A stretch of 17,337 bases of DNA. It comes from Candidatus Caldarchaeales archaeon (GTDB lineage Archaea > Thermoproteota > Nitrososphaeria_A > Caldarchaeales > Calditenuaceae). A model generated the notes under the pieces. It worked only from the letters and a program-made list of their open reading frames with translations, ran no database searches and was not told the DNA's origin. Each line of letters opens with the position of its first letter. Positions within the stretch are counted from its first letter, which is position 1. Location: positions 1 through 17,337 of the forward strand of contig JAVVGN010000040.1 of assembly GCA_032249095.1 (NCBI GenBank), written 5' to 3'. Below are positions 1,194-17,337 of this stretch, one piece after another. The translations under genes were made by a program, and so were the position numbers.

Positions 1194-2117
1194 CTATCCG
1201 GTGAGCCGCTCTAGTAGCATCCCCTTGAACCACTCCCAGTCGGCGTCGACGCAGACCACGGCGTTTGGAGCCTCAGCTGGCCGGGGCCGCCTTGGCGCGG
1301 TCACCCCCCTCGCGACGTCGCCACATGTGAGCACCTCAACCATCATCTCCTTCCACTCGAGCATCGATGAGTCTACGGCTGCGGCCACCGCCACCACATC
1401 ATGTACCTCCATATGCCCGGCCCTCTCAACGTGGTACTGGACAAGCCTTGCCGCGAGGCGGGCCTTTACGCTTCCCGATCTCGAGAGCTTCTCGACCTCG
1501 CTGCTGCCCAGCCAGCCGGCAGGGTTAATCGTTACGTCTAGCCCGACGCAGTGGGGCCTGACCGCCGGGCTAATGACCATCTGGGCTGCCTCTGGGTCAT
1601 TATAGATGTTGAACTCGGCGATCGGGGTGACGTTGCCTCGTCCATAATGAGTTTGGAAGTAGGCTCCACCCATAATTATCAGCCCACCCAGCAGCCTAGG
1701 TATGTCTGGATACCTCGCGAAGAGTAGGGCGAGGTTTGTGAGAGGCCCCGTAGCTATAAGCATGACCTCGCCGGGGTCCTCGTAGACTTTGCCAGCGATG
1801 AACTCGACCGCACCCTCCCTCGGAGCCTCTCTCGGCGCTGATAGCTCCACTCCGCCGAGACCGTCGGAGCCGTGGACGTGCTCAGCAGTCACGAGGGTCC
1901 TCGCCAGGGGGCCTGAAGCACCTCTATAGACGGGCACCTCGCCCCTCCCCACGTGCTCCAAGACACGCCGAGCGTTAATGCTCGTGTTCTCGAGGGAGGT
2001 GTTGCCTGCTACAGTGGTCACGCCAAGCAACTCCAGCTCAGGCGACGAGAGGGCCAATAGAAGGGCCAGCGCATCATCAGTGCCTGGATCCATGTCAAGG
2101 ATAACCTTACGAGCCAC
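1194..2117 (-). CDS. Inosine/uridine-preferring nucleoside hydrolase family protein
   Basis: N-terminal ILDMDPGTDDALAL matches the DxDxxxDD calcium/ribose-binding fingerprint of the IUNH family. Length is 307 aa, with GTG start at 2117 and TAG stop at 1194-1196. Confidence 0.85.
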   Translation of the reverse strand: MARKVILDMDPGTDDALALLLALSSPELELLGVTTVAGNTSLENTSINARRVLEHVGRGEVPVYRGASGPLARTLVTAEHVHGSDGLGGVELSAPREAPREGAVEFIAGKVYEDPGEVMLIATGPLTNLALLFARYPDIPRLLGGLIIMGGAYFQTHYGRGNVTPIAEFNIYNDPEAAQMVISPAVRPHCVGLDVTINPAGWLGSSEVEKLSRSGSVKARLAARLVQYHVERAGHMEVHDVVAVAAAVDSSMLEWKEMMVEVLTCGDVARGVTAPRRPRPAEAPNAVVCVDADWEWFKGMLLERLTG

Positions 2118-2304
2118 GCCTAATAGGAGGGTGTAGAGCCAGTAGATAATGGTTAAATCCTCGGAGTAATTTGGGGGCTGCCGTCCTCCAGAGTCTTTGG
2201 GTTGAGGGACTGACGGATTAGTGGTGCTGTGTAGTGGGGTTTTGTGTGGATGTGGGAGTGCGCGGGGACGGTATTCCCGATGGTGTTCTGCCCAAGTATC
2301 AAGG

Positions 2305-2312
2305 TTTAAATC
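2305..2312 (+). promoter_or_regulatory. TATA-box-like element (TTTAAATC) predicted to drive the aro operon leader
   Basis: This is the only strong AT-rich box in the 358 nt intergenic region. It is centred ~29 nt upstream of the ATG at 2338, so the predicted TSS is ~2334-2337 and the uORF would be essentially leaderless. No other TATA-like box lies between here and asd. Confidence 0.4.
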
Positions 2313-2337
2313 AAAGTGCTAGGCGCATATTGATTGC

Positions 2338-2427
2338 ATGAGTAGGGGGAGGGGCATAGGTCGTAAGAGCATCCAACTCTTTGGTTGGACCGCGACCTAT
2401 GCCTATTTCTTTGGTCCCCGAGAGTAG
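2338..2427 (+). CDS. Candidate leader peptide / uORF, 29 codons, aromatic-rich (MSRGRGIGRKSIQLFGWTATYAYFFGPRE*)
   Basis: ATG at 2338, TAG at 2425-2427. F15, W17, Y21, Y23, F24 and F25 make 6 aromatic residues within residues 15-25. It lies 49 nt upstream of the first gene of the aromatic amino-acid pathway operon and inside a strongly paired leader. Too short to appear in the supplied ORF track. Confidence 0.35.
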   Translation: MSRGRGIGRKSIQLFGWTATYAYFFGPRE

Positions 2428-2453
2428 CTCTGGTTCTCCCCCCTCCCCCTGCT
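2341..2453 (+). promoter_or_regulatory. Structured 5' leader RNA element (nested helices) upstream of asd/aro operon
   Basis: Hand-checked pairings: outer helix 2341-2354 with 2440-2453 (14 bp, one G-U, core GGGGGAGGGG/CCCCTCCCCC); inner helix 2355-2363 with 2393-2401 (9 bp); apical hairpin 2372-2377 with 2384-2389 (6 bp). GGTGAG (2464-2469) and the asd ATG (2476) follow. Confidence 0.45.
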
Positions 2454-2475
2454 CTGCACGTGTGGTGAGTATGTT

Positions 2476-3528
2476 ATGGGTAAGTTAGGTGTAGCTATAC
2501 TGGGAGCCACGGGCATGGTCGGTCAGATCTATGTGCAGATGCTGAGCAGGCATCCATGGTTTGAGATAAGGGCTGTGACGGGTAACTCATCGGTGGGAAA
2601 GACCCTCGCGGAAGCCTATAGAGGTAGGGGGCATGTCCCGGAGAAGTATGCGAGTCTTGAGGTGCTACCCTCAGACCCCTCTAAGATCGATGCAGACCTA
2701 GTATTCAGCTGTCTTCCGACCAAGGCAGCGAGAGAGGTGGAGCCGCGATTCGCAGAGGCAGGGTTCCCAGTTGTCAGCGACTCGGCGGCCCACAGATATC
2801 AGCCCGATGTACCGCTGATAATCCCGGAGGTTAACCCGGAGCATCTAGGCCTGATAGAGACCCAGCGGAGGCAGAGGAGGTGGGACGGCTTCATAGTTAC
2901 TACGCCGAACTGCACCACGGTAGGATTCGCACTACCCCTTAAGCCACTGGTGGACCGATACGGCGTGCGATACGTCAACCTGGTGACTATGCAGTCGGTC
3001 TCTGGAGCAGGGTTCAACGGCGTCTCGTCCATGGCCATAATGTCTAACATCATACCATACATCGAGGGGGAGGAGGCTAAGGTCGCTGAAGAGCCGCGGA
3101 AAATCATGGGCACACTGCAGGACGGCGAGATAAGGCCCCTAGACATAGTTATCGACGCCATATGCACCAGAGTCCCGACGCTGGTAGGCCACCTAGAGGT
3201 AGTGCAGGCCGAGCTCGCCAGAGAAGCCACGGTTGAGGAGATCGCCGAGACCCTCGGAGGATTCATTGGCCTCCCCCAGCAGCTGGAGCTTCCTACTGCT
3301 CCGCGGAGACCCATCAACGTCGCGCAGGAGGAGGACAGGCCACAACCGAGGATCGACACAGACGCGGGCAGCATCCCCGGGATGACGGTGACTGTTGGGA
3401 GGATCAGGCGGGGAAGGCGGCCAAACACGGTTACCTTCGTGTCTCTGAGCAACAACTTGGTGCGAGGAGCCGCTGGGTCGGCGATCCTTACGGGGGAGCT
3501 TCTTCATGTTACAGGATGGCTGGGGTGA
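2476..3528 (+). CDS. asd: Aspartate-semialdehyde dehydrogenase
   Basis: 350 aa. N-terminal Rossmann motif VAILGATGMVGQ and an archaeal-type ASADH-like body with the presumed active-site Cys in TPNCTTV. GGTGAG lies 7 nt upstream of the ATG. Confidence 0.9.
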   Translation: MGKLGVAILGATGMVGQIYVQMLSRHPWFEIRAVTGNSSVGKTLAEAYRGRGHVPEKYASLEVLPSDPSKIDADLVFSCLPTKAAREVEPRFAEAGFPVVSDSAAHRYQPDVPLIIPEVNPEHLGLIETQRRQRRWDGFIVTTPNCTTVGFALPLKPLVDRYGVRYVNLVTMQSVSGAGFNGVSSMAIMSNIIPYIEGEEAKVAEEPRKIMGTLQDGEIRPLDIVIDAICTRVPTLVGHLEVVQAELAREATVEEIAETLGGFIGLPQQLELPTAPRRPINVAQEEDRPQPRIDTDAGSIPGMTVTVGRIRRGRRPNTVTFVSLSNNLVRGAAGSAILTGELLHVTGWLG

Positions 3529-3534
3529 TGGTGG

Positions 3535-4323
3535 ATGGTTTGGGGAAAGCAGGTCAGGATGGGCCGGCTGACGGAGAGGGGAAGGATGCTATGCGTCCCG
3601 ATGGATCACGGGATAACCGCAGGCCCCATGAAGGGGCTCGACAAAATCTACAGGACGATAAGCGAGGTGGAGCGAGGAGGAGCCACGGCGTTTCTAGTCC
3701 ACAAGGGCATAGTCAAGCACATGCCGAGCCCGCCCAAGATAGGGTACATTATTCATGTCTCGGGAAGCACCTCACTCGGGCCTGACCCCAACTGGAAGGT
3801 GAGGGTGGGGGGTGCCCGCACGGCCATTAGACTCGGCGCGGACGGTCTATCTGTCCACATCAACATTGGGAGCAAGGCGGAGCCAGAAATGTTGAGGAAG
3901 CTCGGCGAGATCGCCGACGAGTGCGAGGAGTGGGGGATACCCCTCATAGCTATGATGTATCCACGGGGAGAGAACATTAAGGATCCCAACGACCCTGAGG
4001 TCCTGAGGCATGTCGCGCGGGTTGGGGCCGAGCTAGGCGCCGATATCGTCAAGGTGCCATACAGCGGGAGCATTGATACTTTTAGGAGGGTCGTCGAGTC
4101 TTGCCCCGCGCCAGTGGTTATGGCGGGGGGCCCTAAGATGGACAACGACCTCGCGGTCCTAAAGATGGCTAGGGAGGCTATGGACGCCGGCGCCATGGGG
4201 GTTACAATAGGGCGCAACATCTTCATGCATGAGAGGCCGGCATCAATCGTCAGGGCCCTCCGGAAGATAGTTGTGGATGATGGGTCTGTGGAGGATGCTC
4301 TAGCGGTTCTCGAGGGGGGCTAG
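3535..4323 (+). CDS. aroA': 2-amino-3,7-dideoxy-D-threo-hept-6-ulosonate (ADH) synthase, class I aldolase (DhnA/FbaB) family
   Basis: 262 aa. The stretch GKQVRMGRLTERGRMLCVPMDHGIT resembles the MJ0400-type N-terminus (..VIVPMDHG..). Other aldolase-like motifs are ADIVKVPY (presumed Schiff-base Lys region) and GVTIGRNIF. It sits between asd and dehydroquinate synthase II, 6 nt after the asd stop. Confidence 0.8.
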   Translation: MVWGKQVRMGRLTERGRMLCVPMDHGITAGPMKGLDKIYRTISEVERGGATAFLVHKGIVKHMPSPPKIGYIIHVSGSTSLGPDPNWKVRVGGARTAIRLGADGLSVHINIGSKAEPEMLRKLGEIADECEEWGIPLIAMMYPRGENIKDPNDPEVLRHVARVGAELGADIVKVPYSGSIDTFRRVVESCPAPVVMAGGPKMDNDLAVLKMAREAMDAGAMGVTIGRNIFMHERPASIVRALRKIVVDDGSVEDALAVLEGG

Positions 4324-4327
4324 CTGG

Positions 4328-5323
4328 TTGCCACAGACTAGAGAGAAGGAGATCATCGTTGAGGCGGAGTCGCCTGAGGAGGCGGAGGAGGCGGTAGCTG
4401 CAGGAGCCTCAGCCATCCTCGTCAAAGAAGCTGGAAAGGGGCCTCCGCGCGTCGGGGCAAAGATATACGTCCTGGGCGAGAACGTCGTCCCCGTTAAGGT
4501 TTCGCAGCCAACCGATATCGAGGAAGTTTACAGGATAGCTAGCTCGGGGGCCGAGGCCATACTCGTCGAGACGAGTGAAATGCGGATAATCCCTCTCGAG
4601 AACATTCTCGCGCGCCTCCAGGGGACCGGAGCGAAGGTCTTCACGAGGATAAGTAGCCTCGACGAGGCCGAAGCCTCCTTCGGGATCTTGGAGAAGGGTG
4701 TTGACGGAGTAATCTACCGCCCATCTAGCATTGCCGAGATAGGTGTTCTGGTCGACATGCTTAAGCGGGTTAAGAGCGTGGAGCTTAGGGCCGCGAAGGT
4801 TAGGGAAGTCTACGACGTGGGCATGGGGGAGAGGGCGTGCGTCGACACTATAGCGATGCTTAGATATGGCGAGGGGATGCTAGTAGGCAGCATGGCTCGG
4901 ATGCTCTTCCTAGTTCACAACGAGTCCATAGGCTCAAAGTTCACCCCTCCCAGACCCTTCAGGGTCAACGCAGGAGCCGTCCACCTCTACACACTCTCAC
5001 CAACCGGCAAGACCCTCTATCTCTCGGAGCTCCGTGCAGGGACAAGGATCCTGACGGTCTCGAAGGATGGATCCACGCGCGTCGTTACGGTGGGGAGGGT
5101 TAAGATCGAGCGAAGACCCATGGTTCAAGTAAATGCTGAGGTTGATGGCGTGCTGGGGGCGGCGACACTCCAAAAGGCCGAGACCATCAGGCTCGTCACA
5201 CCCAAGGGAGAGGTCGTTGACGTCACCTCGCTCAGCCCAGGGGACGAGGTCTTGTGCTGGCTCTCCCCCAAGGCGGCCAGACATATGGGCATGGAGGTAG
5301 ACGAGTACATAGATGAAGTCTAG
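4328..5323 (+). CDS. aroB': 3-dehydroquinate synthase II (archaeal type, MJ1249-like)
   Basis: 331 aa. Long stretches match my recollection of the MJ1249 family: IIPLENILA, LDEAEASFGILEKGVDGV, GEGMLVGSMARMLFLVHNES, RPFRVNAGAVHLY, YLSELRAGTRIL, VGRVKIERRPM, AETIRLV. TTG start lies 4 nt after the upstream stop. Confidence 0.9.
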   Translation: MPQTREKEIIVEAESPEEAEEAVAAGASAILVKEAGKGPPRVGAKIYVLGENVVPVKVSQPTDIEEVYRIASSGAEAILVETSEMRIIPLENILARLQGTGAKVFTRISSLDEAEASFGILEKGVDGVIYRPSSIAEIGVLVDMLKRVKSVELRAAKVREVYDVGMGERACVDTIAMLRYGEGMLVGSMARMLFLVHNESIGSKFTPPRPFRVNAGAVHLYTLSPTGKTLYLSELRAGTRILTVSKDGSTRVVTVGRVKIERRPMVQVNAEVDGVLGAATLQKAETIRLVTPKGEVVDVTSLSPGDEVLCWLSPKAARHMGMEVDEYIDEV

Positions 5324-6023
5324 CGTGGCGCGGAGGATATGCGTCTCGCTTCTGGCAAGGACCCCTGAGGAGATGCGGAGCTTGGCGGAGGCCGCGGCGG
5401 AGCTTGGGGCAAGGATGGTGGAGCTTAGGCTTGACGGACTCGAGCGGGGACGCATCCTAGAGGGGCTGCATCTCACGGGCGACCTCGGCCTCAGCCGCGT
5501 GGTGACGATAAGGCCGGAGTGGGAGGGCGGTCTCTACTCTGGGTCTGAGGAGGAGCGGATCAGCCTCTTGGAGAGGGCGGCTGGCTCCGCAGACTTCGTC
5601 GACCTAGAGTATGGCGCGGTCGTGGAGAATGGAGGCGTTGTCGAAGAGCTGCGGGAGGGTGGGTGCAAGCTCATTCTGTCGCGTCACTACGTGTCCGACA
5701 GCCCTCCCTCCGAGTGGATCCGCTCGGAGGCCGAGAGGATGGCGAGGCTCGCGGATATAGTAAAGATAGTCAACAAGCCCAGCAACGTGGCGGAGGCGGT
5801 CCAGCTGCTCTCACTCTACTCAGCCCCCTGGACGCCCGGCAGACTCGTCTGCTTCAGCATAGGCGAGGCCTGGTCCTTGACGAGGATACTGTGTGTCGCG
5901 CTAGGCTCACCCTTCACCTACGCCAGCCTTCCAGGCCGAGCCGTGGCTCCGGGCCAGCCTACCTTCACCGAGGCGCTGGATGCTTTGGAGGCCGCGCTGA
6001 GGATATGGAGCTCCTCGCCGTGA
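5313..6023 (+). CDS. aroD: 3-dehydroquinate dehydratase, type I
   Basis: 236 aa. Motifs VELRLDGL, ILSRHYVSDSPP (His region) and ADIVKIV (Schiff-base Lys region) are typical of type I DHQase. The ATG overlaps the upstream gene by 11 nt. Confidence 0.85.
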   Translation: MKSSVARRICVSLLARTPEEMRSLAEAAAELGARMVELRLDGLERGRILEGLHLTGDLGLSRVVTIRPEWEGGLYSGSEEERISLLERAAGSADFVDLEYGAVVENGGVVEELREGGCKLILSRHYVSDSPPSEWIRSEAERMARLADIVKIVNKPSNVAEAVQLLSLYSAPWTPGRLVCFSIGEAWSLTRILCVALGSPFTYASLPGRAVAPGQPTFTEALDALEAALRIWSSSP

Positions 6024-6847
6024 TAGGCTACCCTATATCCCACTCCGCGTCGCCCATCATGTACAACGCGCTCTTCAGGGTTAGGGATCTTCCGCACAGA
6101 TACATCGCGGTCGAGGTTCCTCCAGAGAATCTCGGCGAAACACTTAGGTCCCTCCACAGGCTGGGCTTCAAGGGTCTCAACATCACGATTCCGCACAAGG
6201 AGGTCGCAGCCATCGAGGCCGTAGGGCTGACCGAGGAGGCGGAGGCTGTTGGGGCGGTAAACACTCTTTCGCGCGAGAGGGAGGGCTGGGTGGGACACAA
6301 CACCGACGTGGCGGGCGTTGTCGGATGCCTTTACAGCCACATCTCAGGCCGGGACTGTAAGGCCCTAGTGCTGGGCGCGGGCGGCAGTGCTGCCGCAGCC
6401 CTCTACGCCCTTGGGAAGATGGGGGTAAGGCGGGCCTACATAGCCAACCGGACAATAGGCCGGGCTGAGAGGCTGGCTGAGAGGGCTGGGAGGCTGTTTG
6501 GGCTCAGTTGTGAGGTTGTGGAGCTCGGCCGCGCTCCCGAGGCTGCGTCGCGTGTGGAGATAATCGTCAACGCAACCCCGCTAGGCCTCACCTACAGCGA
6601 GGCTCCGATTGGGGAGAGGGATTTGACCCCTAGCCACGTAGTCCTAGACATGGTATACTCCCATAGGCCAACACCGATGAGGCTGGCCGCGGAGGCCGCG
6701 GGAGCGACCTACGTTGACGGAGTCAGGATGCTTGTAGAGCAGGGCGCAGCCTCGGTGAGGATACTTCTAGGCATCGAGCCGGACAAGAGGGTTATGGAAG
6801 GCGCGGTGCGGAGCTGGCTGAGAAGAAGGGGGGAGGCGTGGTCTTGA
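6005..6847 (+). CDS. aroE: Shikimate 5-dehydrogenase
   Basis: The track ORF 5663..6847 is an out-of-frame N-terminal extension through aroD. The real start is the ATG at 6005 (MELLAVIGYPISHSASPIMYNALF = G.PI.HS.SP..HN motif). Also present are NITIPHK, the NTD motif (GHNTDVAG) and the GAGG nucleotide-binding loop (VLGAGGSAAA). It overlaps aroD by 19 nt. Confidence 0.9.
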   Translation: MELLAVIGYPISHSASPIMYNALFRVRDLPHRYIAVEVPPENLGETLRSLHRLGFKGLNITIPHKEVAAIEAVGLTEEAEAVGAVNTLSREREGWVGHNTDVAGVVGCLYSHISGRDCKALVLGAGGSAAAALYALGKMGVRRAYIANRTIGRAERLAERAGRLFGLSCEVVELGRAPEAASRVEIIVNATPLGLTYSEAPIGERDLTPSHVVLDMVYSHRPTPMRLAAEAAGATYVDGVRMLVEQGAASVRILLGIEPDKRVMEGAVRSWLRRRGEAWS

Positions 6848-8115
6848 GGGTCAGAATAACTGGGGCGGAGCTACGCGGAGAAGTGAAGGCGCCTCCGAGC
6901 AAGAGCTACACTCACAGGGCGGTCACCGCGGCCCTCCTTTCCGAGGGCTATTCCACAGTGCTTAACCCTCTGCGCTCCCGAGACACGGAGGCGACCATCA
7001 ACGCCGCGAGGCTGTTCGGGGCCGCAGTCGAGGAGGACGAGGATCGACTCGCCGTCAGGGGTAGGAGCAGGCCACTGACCCCCAGCAACGTGATCGATGC
7101 GATGAATTCTGGGACGACCCTGAGGATAATGACGGCTGTGGCGGGCCTCGTGGAGAGGGGATACACGGTGCTCACGGGCGATGAGAGTCTTAGGCGCAGA
7201 CCGATGCAGCCCCTCCTCGACGCTCTCCGCGACCTTGGGGTTCGAGCGTGGTCCACCAAGATGGACGGCACTGCGCCGATAGTGGTGGAGGCAGGTAAGA
7301 TGGGTGGAGTGTGCAGGATAAGGGGAGACGTGAGCAGCCAGTTTGTGTCGGCCCTCCTCATGGCTGGGGCGGCAGCCGAGCGAGAGGTAGCCGTGAAAGT
7401 TGACGGGGAGCCCGTCTCGAGACCATACATAGACTCTACAATAGCCGTCATGGAGGAGTTTGGAGCACGGGTTTGGAGGGAGGGATACACCTATTTTCAG
7501 ACCGAGCCGTCCGGCTACAGGCCGTCAAGCTTCACGGTACCTGGCGACTATGGGCTTGCAGGATTCGTCATGGCAGCCCCCCTATTGGCTGGTGGAAAAG
7601 TCCGGGTCACGGGCCTCAACCCGCGGTACCCCCAGGCAGACAGCACCATCCTCGAAATCTTAGCCAAGATGGGGGCGAAGGTTCGGGTGATCCCCGACGC
7701 GGTTGAGGTTGAGTGGGCGCCCCTGAGGGGGCTGGAGGTCGATTTAAGAGACTCTCCAGACCTACTGCCGATAGTCGCGGTTCTCGGCGCATTGTCCGCG
7801 GGAGAGACGCGGATAACCGGCGTCCAACACGCCAGACATAAAGAGAGCGACAGGATACATGTCCTAGCCTCTGAGCTTGCTAAAGTCTCGATAGAGGTGA
7901 GGGAGGAGCCCGACGGGCTCAGGATAAAAGGGGGAAAGCCAAGCCAGTCGGTCCTCGACCCCCATGGCGACCACAGACTCTTCATGGCCTTCGCGCTTCT
8001 CTCTCTATCAGTCAAAGGGGGGCTGGAGGTCATGGACCCCCAGTCAGCCTCAATCTCCTATCCCGGCTTTCTAGACGACCTGCGCGCGATAGGCTGCGAG
8101 GTGAGCTTCGCGTGA
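6838..8115 (+). CDS. aroA: 3-phosphoshikimate 1-carboxyvinyltransferase (EPSP synthase)
   Basis: 425 aa. Contains APPSKSYTHRAV (P.SKS..HR motif), GTTLR, and HARHKESDRI (the conserved ..KE.DR. stretch). GTG start overlaps aroE by 10 nt. Confidence 0.9.
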   Translation: MVLRVRITGAELRGEVKAPPSKSYTHRAVTAALLSEGYSTVLNPLRSRDTEATINAARLFGAAVEEDEDRLAVRGRSRPLTPSNVIDAMNSGTTLRIMTAVAGLVERGYTVLTGDESLRRRPMQPLLDALRDLGVRAWSTKMDGTAPIVVEAGKMGGVCRIRGDVSSQFVSALLMAGAAAEREVAVKVDGEPVSRPYIDSTIAVMEEFGARVWREGYTYFQTEPSGYRPSSFTVPGDYGLAGFVMAAPLLAGGKVRVTGLNPRYPQADSTILEILAKMGAKVRVIPDAVEVEWAPLRGLEVDLRDSPDLLPIVAVLGALSAGETRITGVQHARHKESDRIHVLASELAKVSIEVREEPDGLRIKGGKPSQSVLDPHGDHRLFMAFALLSLSVKGGLEVMDPQSASISYPGFLDDLRAIGCEVSFA

Positions 8116-9224
8116 CGGGGAACATTCTGGGGAAGAGGTTTGTCGTGGTGAGCTTCGGCGAGAGCCACGGGAGATGCGTCGGCGCGGTAGTGGACGGATG
8201 TCCAGCCGGACTCCCCCTCTCCGAGCAAGATATCCAACCACTACTAGACCTACGGAGGCCGGGCCAATCCCTCGTAACGACCCAGAGGCGCGAGGAGGAT
8301 AAGGTCGAGATAATCAGCGGAGTGTTCGAGGGCTATACCACCGGAGCGCCAATCGCTATGCTCACCTGGAACAGGGACGTTGCCTCAAAAGACTATCAGA
8401 TGGTCTTGGACACGCCTAGGCCCGGTCACGCCGACTACTTCGCCAGGCTGAAGTACGGTGGATTCAACGACTATAGGGGAGGGGGGCGCTTCTCGGGCAG
8501 GATTACAGCCGGATACGTTATGGCGGGCGCAGTCGCGCTCAAGCTTCTAAGGGAGACACTTGGCGTAGAAGTCCTAGCCTACACGAAGAGGATAGCGGGC
8601 GTGGAGGCCCGTCAGCTAGACATCGAGACAATCAGGAGGGGCAGGTGGCTTAACGTTGTAAGATGCCCGGACCAAGAGGCGGCTAAGGAGATGGAGGAGA
8701 CGATCCTGAGGGCTAGAAAGAACGGAGACTCCGTCGGTGGTGTCGTCGAGTGTATAGCCCTGAACATCCCCCCAGGCCTCGGCGAGCCTGTCTTCGACGC
8801 GCTCGACGCAGACATCGCCAAAGCCCTCTTCACCATCCCGGCGGTTAAGGGAGTCGAGTTCGGCGCGGGGTTCAGAGCCGCAGAGATGAGCGGGTCCCAG
8901 CACAACGACCCACTCGGATTAGTAAACGGGAAAATAATGCCCCTGACGAACAACGCCGGTGGCATAGTCGGAGGACTCTCAACGGGGAGAGAAATAGTCG
9001 TCAGGGCCGTCTTTAAGCCAGCATCATCGATCAGCAAGCCCCAACTCACTTTAAATGTCGCTAAGAGGGAGATGGAGGAGGTCGTTGTGACAGGGCGGCA
9101 CGACCCCTCTGTCGTCCCTAGGGCCGTCCCAGTGGTGGAGGCGGTCGTGGGAATAGTGTTGGCAGACCACGCGATAAGAGCAGGGTTAATAGGCCCCGTA
9201 ATATCTAAGAGAGATAGATCGTAG
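8112..9224 (+). CDS. aroC: Chorismate synthase
   Basis: 370 aa. Contains FGESHG, RPGHADY, GGGRFSGR and GRHDPSVVPRA, all chorismate synthase signatures. The GTG start shares GTGA with the aroA stop (4 nt overlap). Confidence 0.95.
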   Translation: MTGNILGKRFVVVSFGESHGRCVGAVVDGCPAGLPLSEQDIQPLLDLRRPGQSLVTTQRREEDKVEIISGVFEGYTTGAPIAMLTWNRDVASKDYQMVLDTPRPGHADYFARLKYGGFNDYRGGGRFSGRITAGYVMAGAVALKLLRETLGVEVLAYTKRIAGVEARQLDIETIRRGRWLNVVRCPDQEAAKEMEETILRARKNGDSVGGVVECIALNIPPGLGEPVFDALDADIAKALFTIPAVKGVEFGAGFRAAEMSGSQHNDPLGLVNGKIMPLTNNAGGIVGGLSTGREIVVRAVFKPASSISKPQLTLNVAKREMEEVVVTGRHDPSVVPRAVPVVEAVVGIVLADHAIRAGLIGPVISKRDRS

Positions 9225-9320
9225 GGTATCCGTATAGTGTTGTTTGTCCTTTTCTCTTGAATATTACCTCGTTTCCCCATAGGTCTAGCTATATAGGGAT
9301 ATTTCCGTGTTCTATGCCTA
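9225..9320. repeat. Repeat X, copy A (paired with 16749-16845)
   Basis: Hand alignment of 9241-9320 against 16766-16845 gives 71/80 identical positions in the same orientation, and similarity extends ~16 nt further left. On the minus strand it reads LGIEHGNIPI*LDLWGNEVIFKRKGQTTLYG, with TAG where copy B has CAG. Confidence 0.8.
9241..9259 (+). terminator. T-rich tract (TGTTTGTCCTTTTCTCTTG) after aroC, candidate operon terminator
   Basis: Pyrimidine/T-rich run beginning 17 nt after the aroC stop. Archaeal intrinsic termination uses oligo-T tracts. The tract also lies inside repeat X. Confidence 0.3.
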
Positions 9321-9686
9321 AGGGAGACATAAAGGCATTGATGAGTATTGAGGAGAGGTGGTTCAGGAGGGTTACCGAGGATTTCCTAGTTATGCGTAGA
9401 ATGATATTGGCCTGATAGGTCTCTTCTGAAGACTCATCAACAACTGGCCAATAAAGCCAAATCTTTGTCGGAGAGTGAGAGGATTACACTAAATTGCTGA
9501 GGAGGCTGGGAAAAGATATCAGGCCTATAATAGGCTAGTTGGTGAGATGGGTATTTGTGGGAATATTAAGGCTCAGGAGGCTCTGGCCGAGTTGATAGCG
9601 TACCTAGATTCATCTAAGGGGTTCAGGAAGACTAGGAATTTACTGGGGCTGTTTAAACCGATTCGCGAAAGTAAGGAAGATCTATA
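9316..9686 (+). pseudogene. Fragmented copy of a small-ORF family (repeat Y copy A at ~9377-9516), broken by a stop, a 1-nt indel and a ~50 nt deletion
   Basis: Three pieces in different frames: MPKGDIKALMSIEERWFRRVTEDFLVMRRMILA* (9316-9414); then RSLLKTHQQLANKAKSLSESERITLNC*; then IAEEAGKRYQAYNRLVGEMGICGNIKAQEALAELIAYLDSSKGFRKTRNLLGLFKPIRESKEDL* (stop at 9684-9686). The pieces align with the intact 16455-16685 ORF (EDLLVMRRMILAHRSLLRTHQQLLNKYRALSDVER...ITEEAGKRH). Confidence 0.45.
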
Positions 9687-9994
9687 GCGGGCACTTGAGG
9701 CGAGCATTGAAGAGGCTGACGGCTTCAACAAACAACATCAGAACGCGTCAAATAACCATGAAGATGGAGAAGGAGGTGCTCGCGAGGATCTGGAGGATGG
9801 ATAGACAGGAAGTCCTGGGGAGGCCGGTATGACAGGCTTGTTAACGCGCACCCCGCTGTCGGGTGCTGTGATGAGGTATTTAACGTTCGGCCTCCTCTAG
9901 GGTTTCCTAGATGTTGCACGGATGGTCAGCCAAGCCCCTCCCCTTTCTTCCCGCCCGCTTGTGTTTTGTTAGTCGGTGTTAAAAAGACGAGGTT

Positions 9995-10002
9995 GTATAA
10001 GA
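9995..10002 (+). promoter_or_regulatory. TATA-like box (TGTATAAG) upstream of the chorismate mutase-aminotransferase gene
   Basis: AT-rich box ~40 nt upstream of the GTG at 10041. GGTGA at 10028-10032 could serve as a Shine-Dalgarno. A second AT box, CTTTAATA, sits at 10007-10014. Confidence 0.3.
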
Positions 10003-10040
10003 TTTGCTTTAATACCTCCAGTGCTCAGGGTGAAAGAGAA

Positions 10041-11447
10041 GTGACTGCGGAGGAGAATCTTAGGAGGTATAGAGAGGAGATCCGCGTGGTAACTGAGGAT
10101 ATCCTCCGAAAAATAGTCCTGAGGAGGGAGCTTGCGAGGAGGCTAGGAGAGACTAAGCGGGCTCTAGGCCTGAGCCTTGTGGACTACGAGGCGGAGGCTG
10201 AGCTGAGGCAACATGTGGCGCGAGTTGCGGCCGATCTAGGCTTAGACCCAGCACATGCACAGAAATTGCTCACACTCCTGATAGATGACGCCGTAAAGAT
10301 TCAAAGCTCCTCCACAAAGCCGCGGATAACGCACATGGACATATTCAGGAAGGCCAAGCAGATCGAGATGAGTGGCGAGAAGGTTTATCACCTCGAGGTC
10401 GGGGAGCCTGACTTCGGAGCCCCATCTCCGGTCGCGGAGGAATTGACGAGGGCGGCGCTTAACGGATACGCAGCTTACGGCGAGGCGAAGGGTAGGCCCG
10501 AGCTCCGTAAAGCGATAAGAGACTCGCTGCGGGAGAGGTTTAGAGTCGATGTCCACGAGGAGCAGATTGTGGTAACACCCGGTGGAAGGTTCGCGGTCTA
10601 CACAGCAGCCGCCTCGGTATTAAGCCCCGGGGATCAGGCAGTCGTGATCGATCCCTCCTGGCCACTCTACAAGCAGGTTGTCGAAATGATGCATGCTAGG
10701 CCCCTAGTTGTCAGGACCAGCCTGGAGGGTGGCTGGATACCCAGCATCGAGGAGCTTGAGAAAAAACTCGGCCAAGGGTGCCGCGCCCTCTTCATCAACT
10801 ACCCAAACAATCCCACAGGTATAGTCTTAAGCAGGAAAGACCTCACCGCGGTGATAGAGGCTGCCCAGCAGGTCAACTGCTACCTGATCAGCGACGAGGT
10901 ATACATGGACTACTGCTTCGCCCACTACGCATCCGCCCTCGAATCAGGCTACGAGAACGTGATAGTAGTGAACTCTTTCTCAAAGAGCTGGGGTATGACC
11001 GGCTACCGGATAGGGTATTTGGTGGCCAAGCGGGAGGTGGCTGACAGGGCCGCCAGAATAGTCTCCCAGCTCATTACCTGTGTACCAGAGTTCGTACAGA
11101 TGGCTGCACTAAAGGCTCTCCTCGACGGTGAGACGCCGCGGAGATACAGCCAAGTGATTAGAGAGAGGATAGAGCTCATCTGCAGGGAGCTAGACCGGAT
11201 TGGCGCAAGATACGTGAAACCCCTCGGGGCGATGTATGTATTTCCCCGCATAGGTGGAGACGGCTTCGACTCAGCCGAGATGGCCCTTAGGCTACTCGAG
11301 AAGAGGAGGGTTGCCGTGGCGCCGGGTACGGCGTTCGGAGACTACCCGGAGTTCATCAGGCTTTCCGCCGGCACATCGAAGGAGGAGCTGTTAACCGGTC
11401 TTAGGCTGCTAGAAGAGGAGCTCAAGAGCATGGATAGGACGAAGTAG
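10041..11447 (+). CDS. Bifunctional-looking fusion: N-terminal AroQ-type chorismate mutase domain plus class I (aspartate/aromatic/prephenate-type) PLP aminotransferase
   Basis: Residues ~1-90 (from the GTG at 10041): NLRRYREEIRVVTEDILRKIVLRRELARRLGETKRALGLSLVDYEAEAELRQHV...LLIDDAVKIQ follows the three-helix AroQ pattern (LR..I..iD..il.Ll..R..la..v...K...). The remainder is a class I aminotransferase with HLEVGEPDF, INYPNNPTG and the PLP-lysine motif NSFSKSWGMTGYRIGY. The track ORF begins at TTG 9966. I prefer GTG 10041 because it leaves ~6 aa before the CM helix and has GGTGA upstream, but the start is uncertain. Confidence 0.85.
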   Translation: MTAEENLRRYREEIRVVTEDILRKIVLRRELARRLGETKRALGLSLVDYEAEAELRQHVARVAADLGLDPAHAQKLLTLLIDDAVKIQSSSTKPRITHMDIFRKAKQIEMSGEKVYHLEVGEPDFGAPSPVAEELTRAALNGYAAYGEAKGRPELRKAIRDSLRERFRVDVHEEQIVVTPGGRFAVYTAAASVLSPGDQAVVIDPSWPLYKQVVEMMHARPLVVRTSLEGGWIPSIEELEKKLGQGCRALFINYPNNPTGIVLSRKDLTAVIEAAQQVNCYLISDEVYMDYCFAHYASALESGYENVIVVNSFSKSWGMTGYRIGYLVAKREVADRAARIVSQLITCVPEFVQMAALKALLDGETPRRYSQVIRERIELICRELDRIGARYVKPLGAMYVFPRIGGDGFDSAEMALRLLEKRRVAVAPGTAFGDYPEFIRLSAGTSKEELLTGLRLLEEELKSMDRTK

Positions 11448-14353: not shown

Positions 14354-14656
14354 CTAGATCACCGGTGATTCGGCCGGCCTGAGGTGTTCGGGGAGAACAG
14401 AGAGTTTCCTCAGCTTCGAGCCTATTTGAACAGCCACGACGTAGCCCCGGCCCCTCTTCTCGACGATACGCCCTACTCTTCCATGGTACCGGCGGTGTGG
14501 CATCCCCTTATGTGATGCGGGATCTACAAGGATCACGACCTTGGCGCCGGGTTCGAGCTCTGAGAGATATACCTCTGGTCGGGGGCCGCTCCTCGACCCT
14601 AAATCTTTTCGAAGAAGCCGCCTCGTCCTTTTCCTACTACCACTATGCCTCGTCAT
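14354..14656 (-). CDS. rpl21e: 50S ribosomal protein L21e
   Basis: 100 aa. MTRHSGSRKRTRRLL..., VVILVDPASHKGMPHRRYHGRVGRIVEKRGRGYVV is the typical L21e SH3-like core. Confidence 0.9.
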   Translation of the reverse strand: MTRHSGSRKRTRRLLRKDLGSRSGPRPEVYLSELEPGAKVVILVDPASHKGMPHRRYHGRVGRIVEKRGRGYVVAVQIGSKLRKLSVLPEHLRPAESPVI

Positions 14657-14693
14657 GGGTCTAGACCGCCTGCATTATTTGGGATTTGCCATG

Positions 14694-14701
14694 TATAAAA
14701 A
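14694..14701 (-). promoter_or_regulatory. TATA box (minus-strand TTTTTATA) for the L21e-rpoF-DUF655-ksgA operon; may double as oligo-U terminator of the upstream ncRNA
   Basis: The minus strand reads CCTTTTTATACAT, centred ~41 nt upstream of the L21e ATG (14656). Confidence 0.4.
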
Positions 14702-14709
14702 GGTGTTTT

Positions 14710-15030
14710 GAGGCGGCTCGACATCAGGAATAAGGACCAAGACTATGGGGAGGGGATGGAGCCTTCCCCGAAAGGGGTTTTGCCTTCGGCCTTCCCTTGG
14801 CCCGGCGTAGGCCGGTGAATAGTCTTTCCATAGAGGCGTAGGGGACGAGAGAGGGGTTGCAGGGGCCACCCGATTCCTGCTCTAAACGCCTCTCTTCGCG
14901 CCTCAACCCGGAGCACCCTGGCCATGGGGAAGGTCGAGCCGGCCATAGACACAGAAGTATTGAAATAGAGGTGTGGAGCTTTCCTCCTCACACTCGCGGG
15001 CACTTGTTCGGCCCTAGGATCAGCCGGTCG
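14710..15030 (-). ncRNA. Structured non-coding RNA, best guess RNase P RNA (type A-like); identity and ends uncertain
   Basis: A 450 nt gap between L21e and pus10 contains only mutually overlapping, low-complexity ORFs. The minus strand has RNase P-like motifs in canonical order: GAGGAGGAAAGCUCC (14975-14989, CR-I-like GAGGAAAGUCC); CCAGGGUGCUCCGGG (14907-14921, like AGGGUGCCAGG); CAGGAAUCGGGUGGCC; and near the 3' end CCAUAGUCUUGGUCCUUAU (like ACAGAACCCGGCUUAU). The 5' and 3' ends pair (GGCU 15022-15025 with AGCC 14715-14718; UAGGGCC with GGUCCUUA). Several tight hairpins are present (CCGGC-CUAC-GCCGG, CCCC-UUUC-GGGG). A TATA-like GGCATAAACC (minus strand, 15083-15092) lies upstream. I could not draw a clean P4 helix by hand. 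Confidence 0.45.
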
Positions 15031-15107
15031 CATGCAGGATGAGGGGGAGCGGTGGGGGCCGTCCTGTCCAAGATCTAGGCCAGGTTTATGCCTACCAACC
15101 CCACCAG

Positions 15108-16484
15108 CTACATCTCTCTAGAGGGCATTCGCTTTGAGACGCCTAAGAACTCGAGTCTTATCTCTAAGGGCTTATTCGCCAGTATCTCGGCGAAGCTCGG
15201 CTTTGTCCTGCCGCCATCGCCATGGATCAGCTCCTTCACGTAAAGGCCCCCATCAGCCACTATGAGAAATTCTACTAGATGGGGATCCTTGAGGCTCGCA
15301 GTGACGCTGTACACCCTTTTCTTTCTAAGCCTGTCGGCCCTTCTCCTGAGGACCCTTGTAGGGGTCATCTGGTCGATTATGGCGCCCCTGAGGATGGACT
15401 CCAACCTCTCTAGGTCGTCCTGCACTATAGGTGACTCGAACCTTACGATGGCTCGGTACCTCTTACTTCCGCCCTCAACCTCTGATTTCAACAACTTCAA
15501 ATCCTTGGAATCCGCGAAGGAGAGATTCTCGACACTTACGTTCCCCTTAGAGTATTCCGTTATCTGTTGCTTAAGGAGCGAGAGATCGATCCTTCTGCGG
15601 GAGGGCTGAATCAGCTCGAGGATGAAGGGCCTACCTTCTCCACCCACTTGGACGTCAACGTCCTCCCGGCCCGCCGCGTGGAACTTATATCCGATCGCGC
15701 CGGCAAGCTTCACAGCAGGCCCAGCTATGTACTCCGCAACCGAGTCGGGGTAAATGCGTCCAGTGAATCCGCACAGCTTGCAGCCGGCACCCCAGCACTT
15801 TGAGCAAAACCACGGCGTCTGGGGCATGTGGGGCTGGTGCTTAAAGTACTGCCCCCTGATGTAGAGTGGGGAGGCATTAACCTCGACTTCTCTCATGAAG
15901 ATGTCTACCTTGAAGATTATGTCAGGGCTTGTGAAGCTGACGGTCTTTCCGGTCAGTTCCTCCAGCCTGCGGCCCAGCTCGCTTGATATATCCTTACGGA
16001 GAGTCCTAGACTCTGTTAGCGCAATCTCAGAGAAGATCCTCTCCTCTATTGAAGCGATGTGACTGGGCACGTGGGCTCCTACTAAAAAGCTGTAGAACTC
16101 GTATCCCAACGACTTTTGGACAGCCTTATGAGCAAGCTCCTCTATTACGGCCTCGTTGAACCGCCCTAGACAGACGACGCATGGTATCCTGATTTCTGGC
16201 CGCGCGCCGATTTGTTCGGCCAGTTGTATGGCTTCTCGATGCCCAGTGGAGGAGAGGTTCTTCAGGATTTGGTAGGCCTCCTCTATGCGGTGTTCCTCTA
16301 ACATTAGCTTTGCCTCTCTTAGAAGCTGGGACTTGATCTCGGCACCGCGTTCACTGCTGTTCCCCCAGGCGCCTGCACCGCCGATGAGCCTTCCTAGGCA
16401 GTTATCGCAGAGCGGATACTTCTCTAAGAGTCTCCTAGCCCTCGAGAGGACCTCTTGGTCATGCGGAGGATGATTCTGGCCCAC
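15108..16484 (-). CDS. pus10: tRNA pseudouridine synthase Pus10 (archaeal Psi54/55 synthase)
   Basis: 458 aa. It has the N-terminal zinc-ribbon motif EKYPLCDNCLGRL with a later CVVCLGR, a THUMP-like middle region, a second Cys cluster CSKCWGAGCKLCGFTG, and the catalytic FHAAGREDVDV motif. The only possible start is the GTG at 16484, because an in-frame stop lies 3 codons upstream. Confidence 0.9.
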   Translation of the reverse strand: MGQNHPPHDQEVLSRARRLLEKYPLCDNCLGRLIGGAGAWGNSSERGAEIKSQLLREAKLMLEEHRIEEAYQILKNLSSTGHREAIQLAEQIGARPEIRIPCVVCLGRFNEAVIEELAHKAVQKSLGYEFYSFLVGAHVPSHIASIEERIFSEIALTESRTLRKDISSELGRRLEELTGKTVSFTSPDIIFKVDIFMREVEVNASPLYIRGQYFKHQPHMPQTPWFCSKCWGAGCKLCGFTGRIYPDSVAEYIAGPAVKLAGAIGYKFHAAGREDVDVQVGGEGRPFILELIQPSRRRIDLSLLKQQITEYSKGNVSVENLSFADSKDLKLLKSEVEGGSKRYRAIVRFESPIVQDDLERLESILRGAIIDQMTPTRVLRRRADRLRKKRVYSVTASLKDPHLVEFLIVADGGLYVKELIHGDGGRTKPSFAEILANKPLEIRLEFLGVSKRMPSREM

Positions 16485-16685
16485 AGGTCTCTATTGAGGA
16501 CGCATCAACAACTACTAAATAAATACAGGGCTTTGTCGGATGTTGAGAGGGAGGTTCTGAAGCCAGCTATCTCCTCCATGGAGAAGCAGACGGTGGAGAT
16601 GGCGAAAAAGATAACTGAGGAGGCTGGTAAGAGGCACCCCCACTTCCTCAGCAAGCCTGAGAATCCTCCTTCCGCCTACTCATAG
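16461..16685 (+). CDS. Small hypothetical protein (~74 aa), intact member of the Y repeat family (repeat Y copy B ~16446-16634)
   Basis: ORF MRRMILAHRSLLRTHQQLLNKYRALSDVEREVLKPAISSMEKQTVEMAKKITEEAGKRHPHFLSKPENPPSAYS. Across the 22 aligned codons 16485-16550 versus 9417-9482, 11 are identical, 4 differ only synonymously (ctt/cta, ctg/ttg, act/acg, ctg/cta), and 3 of the 7 replacements are K/R or E/D. That pattern favours a real or recently real coding frame. It overlaps the pus10 5' end divergently by ~24-30 nt. Start is ATG 16461 or TTG 16455. Confidence 0.35.
   Translation: MRRMILAHRSLLRTHQQLLNKYRALSDVEREVLKPAISSMEKQTVEMAKKITEEAGKRHPHFLSKPENPPSAYS
16515..16526 (-). promoter_or_regulatory. 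TATA-like box (minus-strand GTATTTATTTAG) for pus10
   Basis: Centred ~36 nt upstream of the pus10 GTG. It lies inside the plus-strand small ORF 16455-16685. Confidence 0.35.
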
Positions 16686-16687
16686 TC

Positions 16688-16696
16688 CCTTTTTAA
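16688..16696 (+). terminator. Oligo-T tract (CCCTTTTTA) after the small ORF
   Basis: T5 run 6 nt after the TAG at 16683-16685, in the gap between two convergent small ORFs. Confidence 0.25.
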
Positions 16697-16741
16697 GTCT
16701 TTATCTACTCCCCTACCCTCCACCCAATATTTAGGTCTTAA

Positions 16742-17025
16742 CTATCTTGGATGTCCATATAGCGTTAGTTGTCCTTTTCCCCTGAATATTACCTCGTTTC
16801 CCCACAGGTCTAGCTGTATGGGGATGTTTCCTTGTTCTATGCCTAGCATGTGTCTTAGCTTAGATTTCTCCTTCTTTACTACTCCTATCTCCTTCTCTAA
16901 GCCCTTAATGTTTGTAGTGCATTGTATATTTCTCTTGGTAGTGTTAGTCCCTTTGAGGTTTTTATGTATCCTGGTAGTAGTTTCTTGGCGCTCTCTGTGA
17001 GGTATAGTAGGATGTTTCGAGCCAT
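16742..17025 (-). pseudogene. Small minus-strand ORF split by a -1 frame change (42-codon N-part plus ~50-codon C-part)
   Basis: The ATG at 17025 gives MARNILLYLTESAKKLLPGYIKTSKGLTLPREIYNALQTLRA*, with stop at 16897-16899. Shifting one base gives an open frame, LEKEIGVVKKEKSKLRHMLGIEQGNIPIQLDLWGNEVIFRGKGQLTLYGHPR*, with stop at 16742-16744. GAGGAGGATGA lies upstream of the ATG. No family recognised. Confidence 0.3.
16749..16845. repeat. Repeat X, copy B (paired with 9225-9320)
   Basis: See copy A: 71/80 identities over the core. On the minus strand it encodes the C-terminus MLGIEQGNIPIQLDLWGNEVIFRGKGQLTLYGHPR*. Confidence 0.8.
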
Positions 17026-17337
17026 CTCCAAATCATCCTCCTCAATATGGGGTTTGGGGTGATTCTTATGGATGGTTTGTCCAGGTCGTAGCGCGCCCAG
17101 CTCAGGAATTTTTCCTACTGTTAGAGCCGACTCTCCCTAACTTTTTCTAGTAGCTTGCTTACTGTCTGTTGCGACTGGGGTAGGCCAAGCCTTTAGACAT
17201 AAGTTTCTTCCTAGCTAGTGGTCTAACCGGCCTATTGGGGCCACCACTCTTTATATGTGGGGCCGGTGGAGGGTCTTATCCGAACGGGTGATGGAGATAG
17301 GTTGGTGATGGCTTATCTGTGGATGAGGCTTAGGGAT

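Follow-up and report, generated by a model that had tools for sequence, protein, structure and literature searches.

A candidate ribosome-sensed leader peptide in front of the asd–aro operon of Caldarchaeales

The asd–aro locus and its upstream open reading frame

We analysed a 17,337-nucleotide stretch of DNA from a Candidatus Caldarchaeales archaeon (contig JAVVGN010000040.1 of assembly GCA_032249095.1; hereafter the window) and focused on positions 2305–2475, which an earlier note on this DNA had read as a candidate leader-peptide attenuator or translational switch for an operon of aromatic biosynthesis. The Caldarchaeales are the former Aigarchaeota, and the window has a G+C content of 56.6%; a scan with one genome for each species assigned the locus to the family Calditenuaceae of this order. 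Downstream of the leader, at 2476–9224 on the forward strand, Pfam matches identify the genes asd, aroA′ (DeoC-type ADH synthase), aroB′ (DHQ synthase II), aroD, aroE, aroA (EPSP synthase) and aroC (chorismate synthase, 8112–9224), in this order. They belong to the archaeal route to chorismate that is initiated by aspartate semialdehyde, the 6-deoxy-5-ketofructose-1-phosphate (DKFP) pathway. The promoter of the operon is marked by a TATA box read in the sequence, TTTAAATC (2305–2312, forward strand), and asd itself is preceded by the Shine–Dalgarno (SD) sequence GGTGAG at 2464–2469 and starts at 2476–2478 (forward strand). Between box and SD, an ATG at 2338 opens an upstream open reading frame (uORF) of 29 codons plus stop (2338–2427, forward strand), which translates as MSRGRGIGRKSIQLFGWTATYAYFFGPRE. 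Box, start codon, frame and peptide all lie where the earlier note had put them and read as it had described. Identical copies of the locus occur on hot-spring metagenome contigs.

Six of eleven consecutive residues of the uORF peptide are aromatic (F15, W17, Y21, Y23, F24 and F25), in a window whose genes have aromatic residues at 5.8% of 4,796 codons (binomial P = 1.3 × 10−5 for at least 6 of 11). In a background of small ORFs drawn from 397 kb of sequence, only 21 of 5,175 had at least six aromatic residues in nine, and 16 of these 21 were the same leader in other genomes. We conclude that the aromatic enrichment of the uORF exceeds chance. The frame is enriched in codons for end products of the pathway, the operon making chorismate. 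Its core sensor codons are TAT GCC TAT TTC TTT (Y A Y F F) at 2398–2412 on the forward strand, the last three of which lie in an unpaired junction. Short ORFs are common here (13 of at least 20 amino acids overlap the intergenic region), as would suit an ORF that arose by chance in a GC-rich inverted repeat. We give that explanation almost no weight: it is contradicted by the rarity counts, by the comparative conservation described below, by the leader hairpin, which has no second copy within the window, and by a metagenome-wide pattern scan, in which 18 of 19 matches lay upstream of asd and the remaining one was a chance match in a coding region. The same single-copy hairpin and asd-confined scan matches led us to reject a mobile element or repeat.

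Conservation of the uORF across Caldarchaeales

We compared the regions upstream of asd in 24 species-representative genomes, together with distinct variants from the metagenome pattern scan. The uORF was present at all 17 Calditenuaceae species loci, only 10 of which nhmmer aligned to the window leader, and gene order was kept at least through aroE in all leader-bearing loci. The Calditenuaceae sequences comprise 22 distinct leaders in four subgroups (W, X, Y and Z), with the window in W. The peptide of subgroup W, that of the window, is MSRGRGIGRK..TATYAYFFGPRE; examples from the other subgroups are MGSKNFKLIGFATYAYFYAWIS (X) and MVLSSVNAFWFTTYPYFYFGN (Z), both with a GTG start written as M, and MGRATSVTFGFTAYTYFYFWEG (Y). 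None of the 22 leaders had an in-frame stop in the uORF frame, the other two sense frames were closed in 20 and 16, and the antisense frames were not kept open. All share the aromatic core [FT][TA][TA]Y.YF[YF], in which substitutions are synonymous or exchange Tyr and Phe. At the three aromatic codons of the junction, position 1 is an invariant T, position 2 is A or T (Tyr or Phe) and position 3 is T or C, and these unpaired sensor codons vary with a three-nucleotide periodicity. Codons for Ser, Leu or Pro, which would pair better with the G-tract of the leader, never occur at the junction sensor positions, and the non-coding C-tract is nearly pure C, unlike the junction codons; together these observations fit a junction whose composition is set by coding rather than by pairing. 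The A at position 2 of the Tyr codons, poor for pairing with G, also fits a coding constraint.

The start of the uORF varies in a patterned way. Subgroups X, Y and Z start at an ATG or GTG that lies 4–8 nt behind a homologue of the G-tract, and this spacing indicates that the homologue is the SD sequence of their uORF. Subgroup W has ATA or GTA at that start position and has gained an in-frame ATG six codons upstream; across the leaders, the uORF starts at one of these two conserved alternative in-frame positions. The difference in length between W and the other three subgroups is exactly 3 nt and falls in an otherwise unconserved apical region. A TATA-like box lies about 30 nt 5′ of the first nucleotide of the basal helix (P1, below) in all four subgroups, and the transcript should therefore begin at the base of P1. 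From TATA spacing only, this puts the predicted transcription start of the window at 2335–2338 (forward strand), 0–3 nt before the ATG, so that the uORF of subgroup W would be leaderless. Both this transcription start and translation of the uORF are predictions; the open frame, the turnover of start codons, the 3-nt length difference and the codon make-up of the junction all speak for translation. The pattern of substitutions, lengths and starts indicates that the uORF is under coding-type selection in the 22 distinct Calditenuaceae leaders; the conservation of an aromatic uORF among orthologous leaders, to which the earlier note had looked, is found in these and in other genera of the order.

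Conservation of the frame and of its aromatic core over the whole order also fits a small aromatic protein with a function in trans, such as a precursor peptide or a micropeptide associated with a membrane or an enzyme. We consider this very improbable. Neither the length (14–29 amino acids) nor the N- or C-terminus is conserved, only the aromatic/Thr composition; the ORF always sits on the operon's own leader, where it is interwoven with pairing to its own start region; and six representative uORF peptides had no match in Pfam or NCBIfam at E values up to 10, those profiles showing no similarity to any leader-peptide family either.

One to three Thr codons always stand beside the aromatic codons (in one-letter code TAT, TTT, FTT, YTT, STT, RAT, FLT and FFT; 2389–2397 in the window). 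The first gene is always asd or the aspartate kinase gene, both of which serve threonine synthesis as well, and the leader may therefore sense Thr together with the aromatic amino acids; the window's Thr codons double as the 3′ arm of helix P2, so that for Thr we can only infer sensing.

In subgroup X we observed about 60 extra nucleotides between P1 and asd (2957–3004 in L014; also in L016, L035 and L020). The insert contains a second small ORF of 15–17 codons, which starts with ATGTCT (TTGTCT in L020) right after P1 and behind GAGGTG, has T4–T5 runs inside and overlaps the asd start at its end (ATGA in L014). As it opens with codons similar to those at the asd start of subgroup W, it may be a relic that now gives translational coupling.

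Beyond the Calditenuaceae, the aspartate kinase gene (ask) precedes asd in Caldarchaeum subterraneum and Pelearchaeum, and an aromatic uORF lies upstream behind a TATA box. We sampled eight further aspartate-kinase loci, chosen without regard to leaders; seven had a clearly aromatic uORF ending 26–60 nt before ask, and the eighth (L057, ask alone in a Caldarchaeum sp.) had a weak version, MVSTTNVFRFTCYS. Aromatic-plus-Thr uORFs 26–60 nt upstream of ask were found in L022, L024, L029 and L054–L061. Their peptides include ..AKAFTYYWPFGYTTFSFFYYRG in Ca. Caldarchaeum subterraneum (L022), ..AKAFTYYRSFGFTTFSFYYWG in a leader of the Caldarchaeum type (L054), MVRA.GLT.TGFS.FTTFSYYYRW in Ca. Pelearchaeum (L024 and L029), MKAAHFYRFSGYTYYRI in archaeon HR01 (L056), MTANLLSPRYRATFYRYY before ask alone in a Caldarchaeum sp. 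(L058), MRDCLFLT..Y..YRYSELDASL in an Aigarchaeota archaeon and Terraquivivens (L059 and L060) and MRSRENKTKVVFFTFWSYFYFALA in another Aigarchaeota archaeon (L061). The uORF was absent from two asd operons of Caldarchaeum sp. (L023 and L025), which look leaderless and have ask elsewhere, from one AT-rich Nitrososphaeria genome and from two genomes outside the order Caldarchaeales. It stays with ask even without aro genes: ask–asd is followed by adh_short in HR01, and ask stands alone in L057 and L058, so it seems to be the branch's first enzyme to which control is tied. In the asd and ask neighbourhoods, the only ones examined, no other amino-acid-biased leader ORF was convincing. We regard it as somewhat better than an even bet that these leaders form a lineage-wide family of Tyr/Phe/Trp(+Thr)-codon uORFs, which would control entry to the aspartate-semialdehyde/DKFP aromatic pathway (ask or asd first) across Caldarchaeales and use the SD of the uORF as a decoy for the anti-SD tract.

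Predicted fold and modelled rearrangements of the leader

The segment 2335–2480 has a minimum free energy of −64.9 kcal/mol, compared with −49.3 (standard deviation 4.0) for dinucleotide shuffles (z = −3.95; none of 200 as good). The nested helices claimed by the earlier note were all recovered within this fold: P1 pairs 2335–2353 with 2441–2458, P2 pairs 2354–2364 with 2392–2402, and P3 pairs 2372–2378 with 2383–2389. The core of the 5′ arm of P1 is the G-tract GGGGGAGGGG (2345–2354), and its 3′ arm is formed by the C-tract, an anti-SD-like pyrimidine tract (2436–2458). P2 pairs the uORF initiation region with sensor codons: its 5′ arm contains ATA (2356–2358) at the position of the ATG or GTG start of the other subgroups, and its 3′ arm consists of Thr/Tyr codons (GCG ACC TAT GCC). 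The apical hairpin P3 (2372–2389) varies in sequence with its length kept modulo 3. Folding at 75 °C added a small hairpin, P4 (2418–2433), with the uORF stop codon (2425–2427) in its loop; all these elements are on the forward strand.

P1, P2 and P4 recur in every subgroup. We counted pairs on two subgroup alignments, a joint MAFFT/RNAalifold alignment over the four subgroups having misaligned P1. In alignment A4 (W and X), 87.8% of cells form standard pairs, compared with 38–51% in slid 3′ registers, seven pairs change on both sides, and the covariation score was reached by 1 of 500 shuffles. In alignment A5 (Y and Z), 84% of cells pair, compared with 44–57% in slid registers, and there is little variation. 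L032 has the compensatory GAACAG/CTGTTC where the window has GAGTAG/CTGCTC; pair 24/68 of A4 is A-U, G-U or G-C in different leaders; pair 24/65 of A5 changes from A-U to G-C; Y and Z carry a 2-bp insertion in both arms of P1 relative to W and X; and the P4 arms of L007-type leaders change in compensatory fashion (GGACC/GGTCC, GGGCC/GGCCC and GGCCC/GGGCT). A stop-codon-holding hairpin equivalent to P4 is found in other groups too, as a perfect 8-bp version in L061, and the next start codon lies 10–26 nt after the base of P1 in most of 21 leaders, three of the Y/Z values being unreliable. Compensatory change had been named in the earlier note as a way to check the helices; they are kept, and a few of their changes are compensatory.

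Two further proposals of that note did not extend to relatives. A second partner for the G-tract, TCCCC at 2415–2419, is not conserved and was rejected. The tract TATTTCTTT, taken for an archaeal T-rich terminator, is not conserved either; it consists of Tyr/Phe codons, and subgroup Z has TACTTCTACTTC without a T-run, which led us to reject an oligo-T terminator at this site.

A fold this stable and conserved could instead be that of a structured RNA, whether riboswitch, operator for a protein or stabilising hairpin at the 5′ end, with the ORF as a by-product of pairing between G-rich and pyrimidine-rich segments. P1 starts at the predicted 5′ end, like protective 5′ stem-loops, and a pyrimidine tract complementary to a G-tract will often read as Phe, Ser, Leu or Pro codons. 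A canonical start codon is, moreover, missing from two leaders. Nevertheless, the most conserved unpaired segment varies by threes and holds Tyr/Phe codons only, the loss of a start codon is offset by an in-frame ATG, indels are multiples of three in a loop without conserved structure, and aromatic uORFs recur in genera with different nucleotide sequences and helices. Rfam 15 gave no match at gathering score over the whole window and, at E values up to 10, only chance-level matches (four miRNA precursors and RsaE; best E = 0.77); tRNA and tmRNA genes were likewise not found. We therefore judge a structured RNA element to be unlikely.

We modelled how the pairing might change as the leader is made and translated. 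In transcripts cut before the C-tract, the G-tract paired with the Phe/Tyr sensor codons through G-U-rich pairs in all subgroups at 37 °C; once present, the C-tract took over the G-tract to give P1. Masking the 5′ arm reduced the mean unpaired probability of the downstream SD from 0.70 to 0.46 at 75 °C, with a decrease in 20 of 21 leaders, the C-tract then pairing partly with that SD. The ground state predicted for leaders of Pelearchaeum, HR01 and the Terraquivivens type already has the ask SD paired to the pyrimidine tract (unpaired probability 0.02–0.16 at 37 °C in L024, L029, L056, L059 and L060). This probability rose to 0.22–0.50 in L024, L029 and L056 when a ribosome was modelled at the stop codon or over the aromatic run; a ribosome-binding site that is sequestered and then released by a stalled ribosome is thus seen in silico for these three. 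The anti-anti-SD/anti-SD/SD arrangement proposed in the earlier note thus finds partial support: the effect of masking and the pairing of pyrimidine tract and SD in these lineages speak for it. In the equilibrium folds of the window's own subgroup, the asd ribosome-binding site did not switch.

The same models bear on an arrest peptide that would sense free aromatic amino acids (or chorismate/prephenate) in the ribosome tunnel rather than tRNA charging. The conserved block occupies the last 5–12 residues before the stop and ends 1–2 codons before it in Pelearchaeum and Caldarchaeum, the stop lies in a conserved hairpin loop, and holding a ribosome at this codon frees the ask SD in the models of L024, L029, L059 and L060. 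However, Tyr and Phe interchange and their order shuffles (YAYFF, YAFYF, YAYFYAW, YTYFYFW, FSYYYRW and FFTFWSYFYF), so that composition and not peptide sequence is conserved; in ligand-sensing arrest peptides such as TnaC and the fungal arginine attenuator peptide (AAP), critical residues are fixed at defined distances from the site of arrest, and here order and spacing vary. In addition, opening of the SD on amino-acid abundance would induce a biosynthetic operon at the wrong time. An arrest peptide accordingly seems improbable to us.

We favour, with a probability of about two in three, the reading of 2305–2475 as the promoter and 5′ leader of the asd–aro operon, working as a ribosome-sensed leader peptide of the attenuator type; the comparative leader test supports, computationally, the leader-peptide interpretation from which we started. 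That the uORF is a cis-acting, translated sensor is the firmer part and, judged from the comparison of leaders, highly probable. A ribosome would load on the uORF while the leader is being transcribed, and scarcity of charged Tyr, Phe or Trp tRNA (possibly Thr tRNA) would park it on the sensor codons. Its position would set the partners of the G-tract and the pyrimidine tract, and this choice would decide whether the SD of the first structural gene is accessible. For relatives of the Pelearchaeum and HR01 kind, the prediction is a ground state with the ask SD masked by the pyrimidine tract and freed once a ribosome halts on the aromatic codons near the C-terminus. In the window's subgroup, the pyrimidine tract would be captured by the SD-like G-tract of the uORF, with a predicted three-way competition between G-tract, C-tract and asd SD. 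As to the output, control of translation by SD/anti-SD competition is our tentative preference, at somewhat less than even odds; premature termination or polarity is doubtful, and an effect on RNA stability or something else is equally so. U-rich tracts right after the pyrimidine tract in Caldarchaeum, Pelearchaeum and subgroup X (none in W, Y and Z) leave room for premature termination there.

Several results weigh against the leader-peptide reading or limit it. The window's subgroup showed no equilibrium switch: P1 persisted at 37 and 75 °C with a ribosome on the aromatic codons, at the stop or nowhere, and the accessibility of the asd SD and AUG did not respond to stall or stop masks. The folding with and without a stalled ribosome that the earlier note had proposed thus left the asd ribosome-binding site unchanged; a riboswitch-like equilibrium switch of this site on stalling was not seen at either temperature in W, X or Y and was rejected, only subgroup Z being bistable at equilibrium. 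The asd SD is mostly open in the predicted ground state (0.7 unpaired at 75 °C), so the sequestered site of a translational attenuator in its uninduced fold is not found in this subgroup, and details of the predicted switch differ between lineages. Folding parameters at 70–75 °C are extrapolations. A terminator scan found no intrinsic-terminator-like site in 2000–2600, and no T-run is conserved in subgroups W, Y and Z. In A4 the number of double-changed pairs was not above that of shuffles, and in A5 covariation was not significant; most stem positions are invariant, and the stems are also coding or SD sequence, which would explain why covariation is modest. Finally, L022 (approximately 1625–1700) and L054 (approximately 95–170) keep the aromatic frame, including an in-frame 3-nt length difference, and, downstream of the in-frame stop that precedes it, offer ATA/GTA or ACG but neither ATG, GTG nor TTG. 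Behind the SD-like tract stands ATA in L022 and GTA in L054, the two codons also seen at the homologous position in subgroup W; non-canonical initiation or an unrecognised start could account for this.

Since P1 forms and the asd SD is predicted to be open in every modelled state, an ‘off’ state in the window's subgroup must be kinetic or involve factors outside the model. It may be kinetic, with the G-tract paired to the sensor codons and the C-tract to the SD in order of synthesis; it may arise from ribosome queues that keep the 5′ arm covered, or from a rigid P1 helix that abuts the ribosome-binding site; or the effect may be on termination or decay.

Genomic surroundings and relation to known attenuators

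A nucleoside hydrolase gene (1194–2117, Pfam match) diverges from the asd–aro operon. The intergenic region contains a second TATA-like motif, GGTTAAATCC at 2152–2161, about 35–45 nt from the GTG start (2117) of that gene and probably its promoter; the earlier note had taken the box at 2305–2312 for the only one. At 9966–11447 lies a gene for a chorismate mutase–aminotransferase fusion, whose true start is likely the GTG at 10041, about 30 nt after the TATA-like CTTTAATAC; the gene would hence be leaderless. No aromatic uORF or leader precedes it, and we rejected a second aromatic leader at this site; the aromatic leader would then be specific to the entry operon. A walk along the source genome found no other amino-acid operon on the contigs around the window. 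On the L052 contig, which encodes an Asd protein identical to that of the window, EPSP synthase is followed not by chorismate synthase but by unrelated genes (RraA-like and others; 14363–17070), which indicates that strains differ by a rearrangement at the operon's 3′ end, near the repeat at 9224. The same contig carries a GHMP-kinase gene (1533–2399, reverse strand) about 8 kb upstream of asd. It is likely the archaeal-type shikimate kinase, the one pathway step missing from the operon, and would, lying outside it, escape control by the leader.

Two families of direct repeats were observed in the window, 9224–9320 with 16749–16845 (97 nt, 87% identity) and 9417–9482 with 16485–16550 (66 nt, 76%). 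They flank a 7.3-kb housekeeping block (the chorismate mutase–aminotransferase fusion, an ABC ATPase, KsgA, DUF655, RpoF, L21e and Pus10). A 76-amino-acid ORF (16455–16685) and the sequence behind it contain the right copy, and the left copy has a truncated version of this ORF (9257–9415, ..FLVMRRMILA*); the pair looks like a partial duplication or rearrangement scar.

Leader-peptide attenuation is a textbook bacterial mechanism. With trpL, pheL, hisL, thrL and ilvL of E. coli, the Caldarchaeales leader has in common an ORF enriched in codons for pathway end products, multivalent like the thr and ilv leaders (here for Tyr, Phe and Trp, and perhaps for Thr), sensor codons inside predicted alternative RNA pairings, and a conserved position of the stop relative to the next RNA segment. 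It differs in its archaeal host and, in the window's subgroup, in that its first gene is not preceded by an intrinsic terminator, a G+C hairpin with a U-run; this absence places it outside the classical bacterial class. Its segments pair as 1:2, 1:3 and 3:4 instead of 1:2, 2:3 and 3:4, and segment 1 is the uORF's own SD or 5′ end, so that the folded leader, unlike bacterial attenuators, would shut off its own uORF. Archaea have a eukaryote-like RNA polymerase and are not known to use hairpin-dependent terminators.

In E. coli pyrBI, the leader ORF runs into the regulatory hairpin, so that a ribosome prevents the hairpin from forming; pyrBI senses uridine triphosphate through polymerase pausing rather than sensor codons and ends in a canonical bacterial terminator. 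P2 could be read in a pyrBI-like way, and so could the leaders of Caldarchaeum and Pelearchaeum, in which U-rich tracts come after P1 or the pyrimidine tract. The ermC and cat leaders likewise place an ORF among nested hairpins, with the ribosome's position selecting the partner of the SD; in them, a drug makes the ribosome stall in a manner dependent on the nascent peptide, whereas the conserved feature here is a codon composition matched to pathway products. In mycobacterial leaderless poly-Cys short ORFs, ribosomes stalled on cognate codons block a structure that sequesters the downstream ribosome-binding site (Canestrari et al., bioRxiv 10.1101/834739). Like them, the present leader has a predicted leaderless, sensory ORF as its first cistron and lacks a terminator, and the behaviour predicted for Pelearchaeum and HR01 matches their logic. 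In the window's subgroup, by contrast, a stalled ribosome cannot reach the anti-SD tract, and the predicted ground state leaves the ribosome-binding site open. Other differences are the amino acids concerned, the domain of life and the decoy helix P1, which has no counterpart in the mycobacterial system.

We know of no archaeal amino-acid-sensing leader peptide, and full-text searches of the literature found none described. One tool paper makes the general remark that gene regulation by uORFs occurs in archaea. The element fits best among ribosome-mediated attenuators, as a new archaeal variant in which the sensor is well supported. With the recent cultivation of a Calditenuis species (PMC12979851), the prediction has become directly testable. 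If it is correct, Archaea would also use the translating ribosome as a metabolite sensor, and this would be the first natural case of archaeal co-transcriptional translation serving as a metabolic sensor. The leaders would provide a conserved test case for transcription–translation coupling and SD/anti-SD control in Archaea, with an architecture that has no bacterial counterpart, in which the SD of the uORF is a decoy for the anti-SD tract that masks the structural gene. For the Caldarchaeales, the regulatory entry point of the archaeal DKFP route would be identified, with control placed on ask or asd and possibly exerted jointly by threonine and the aromatic amino acids.

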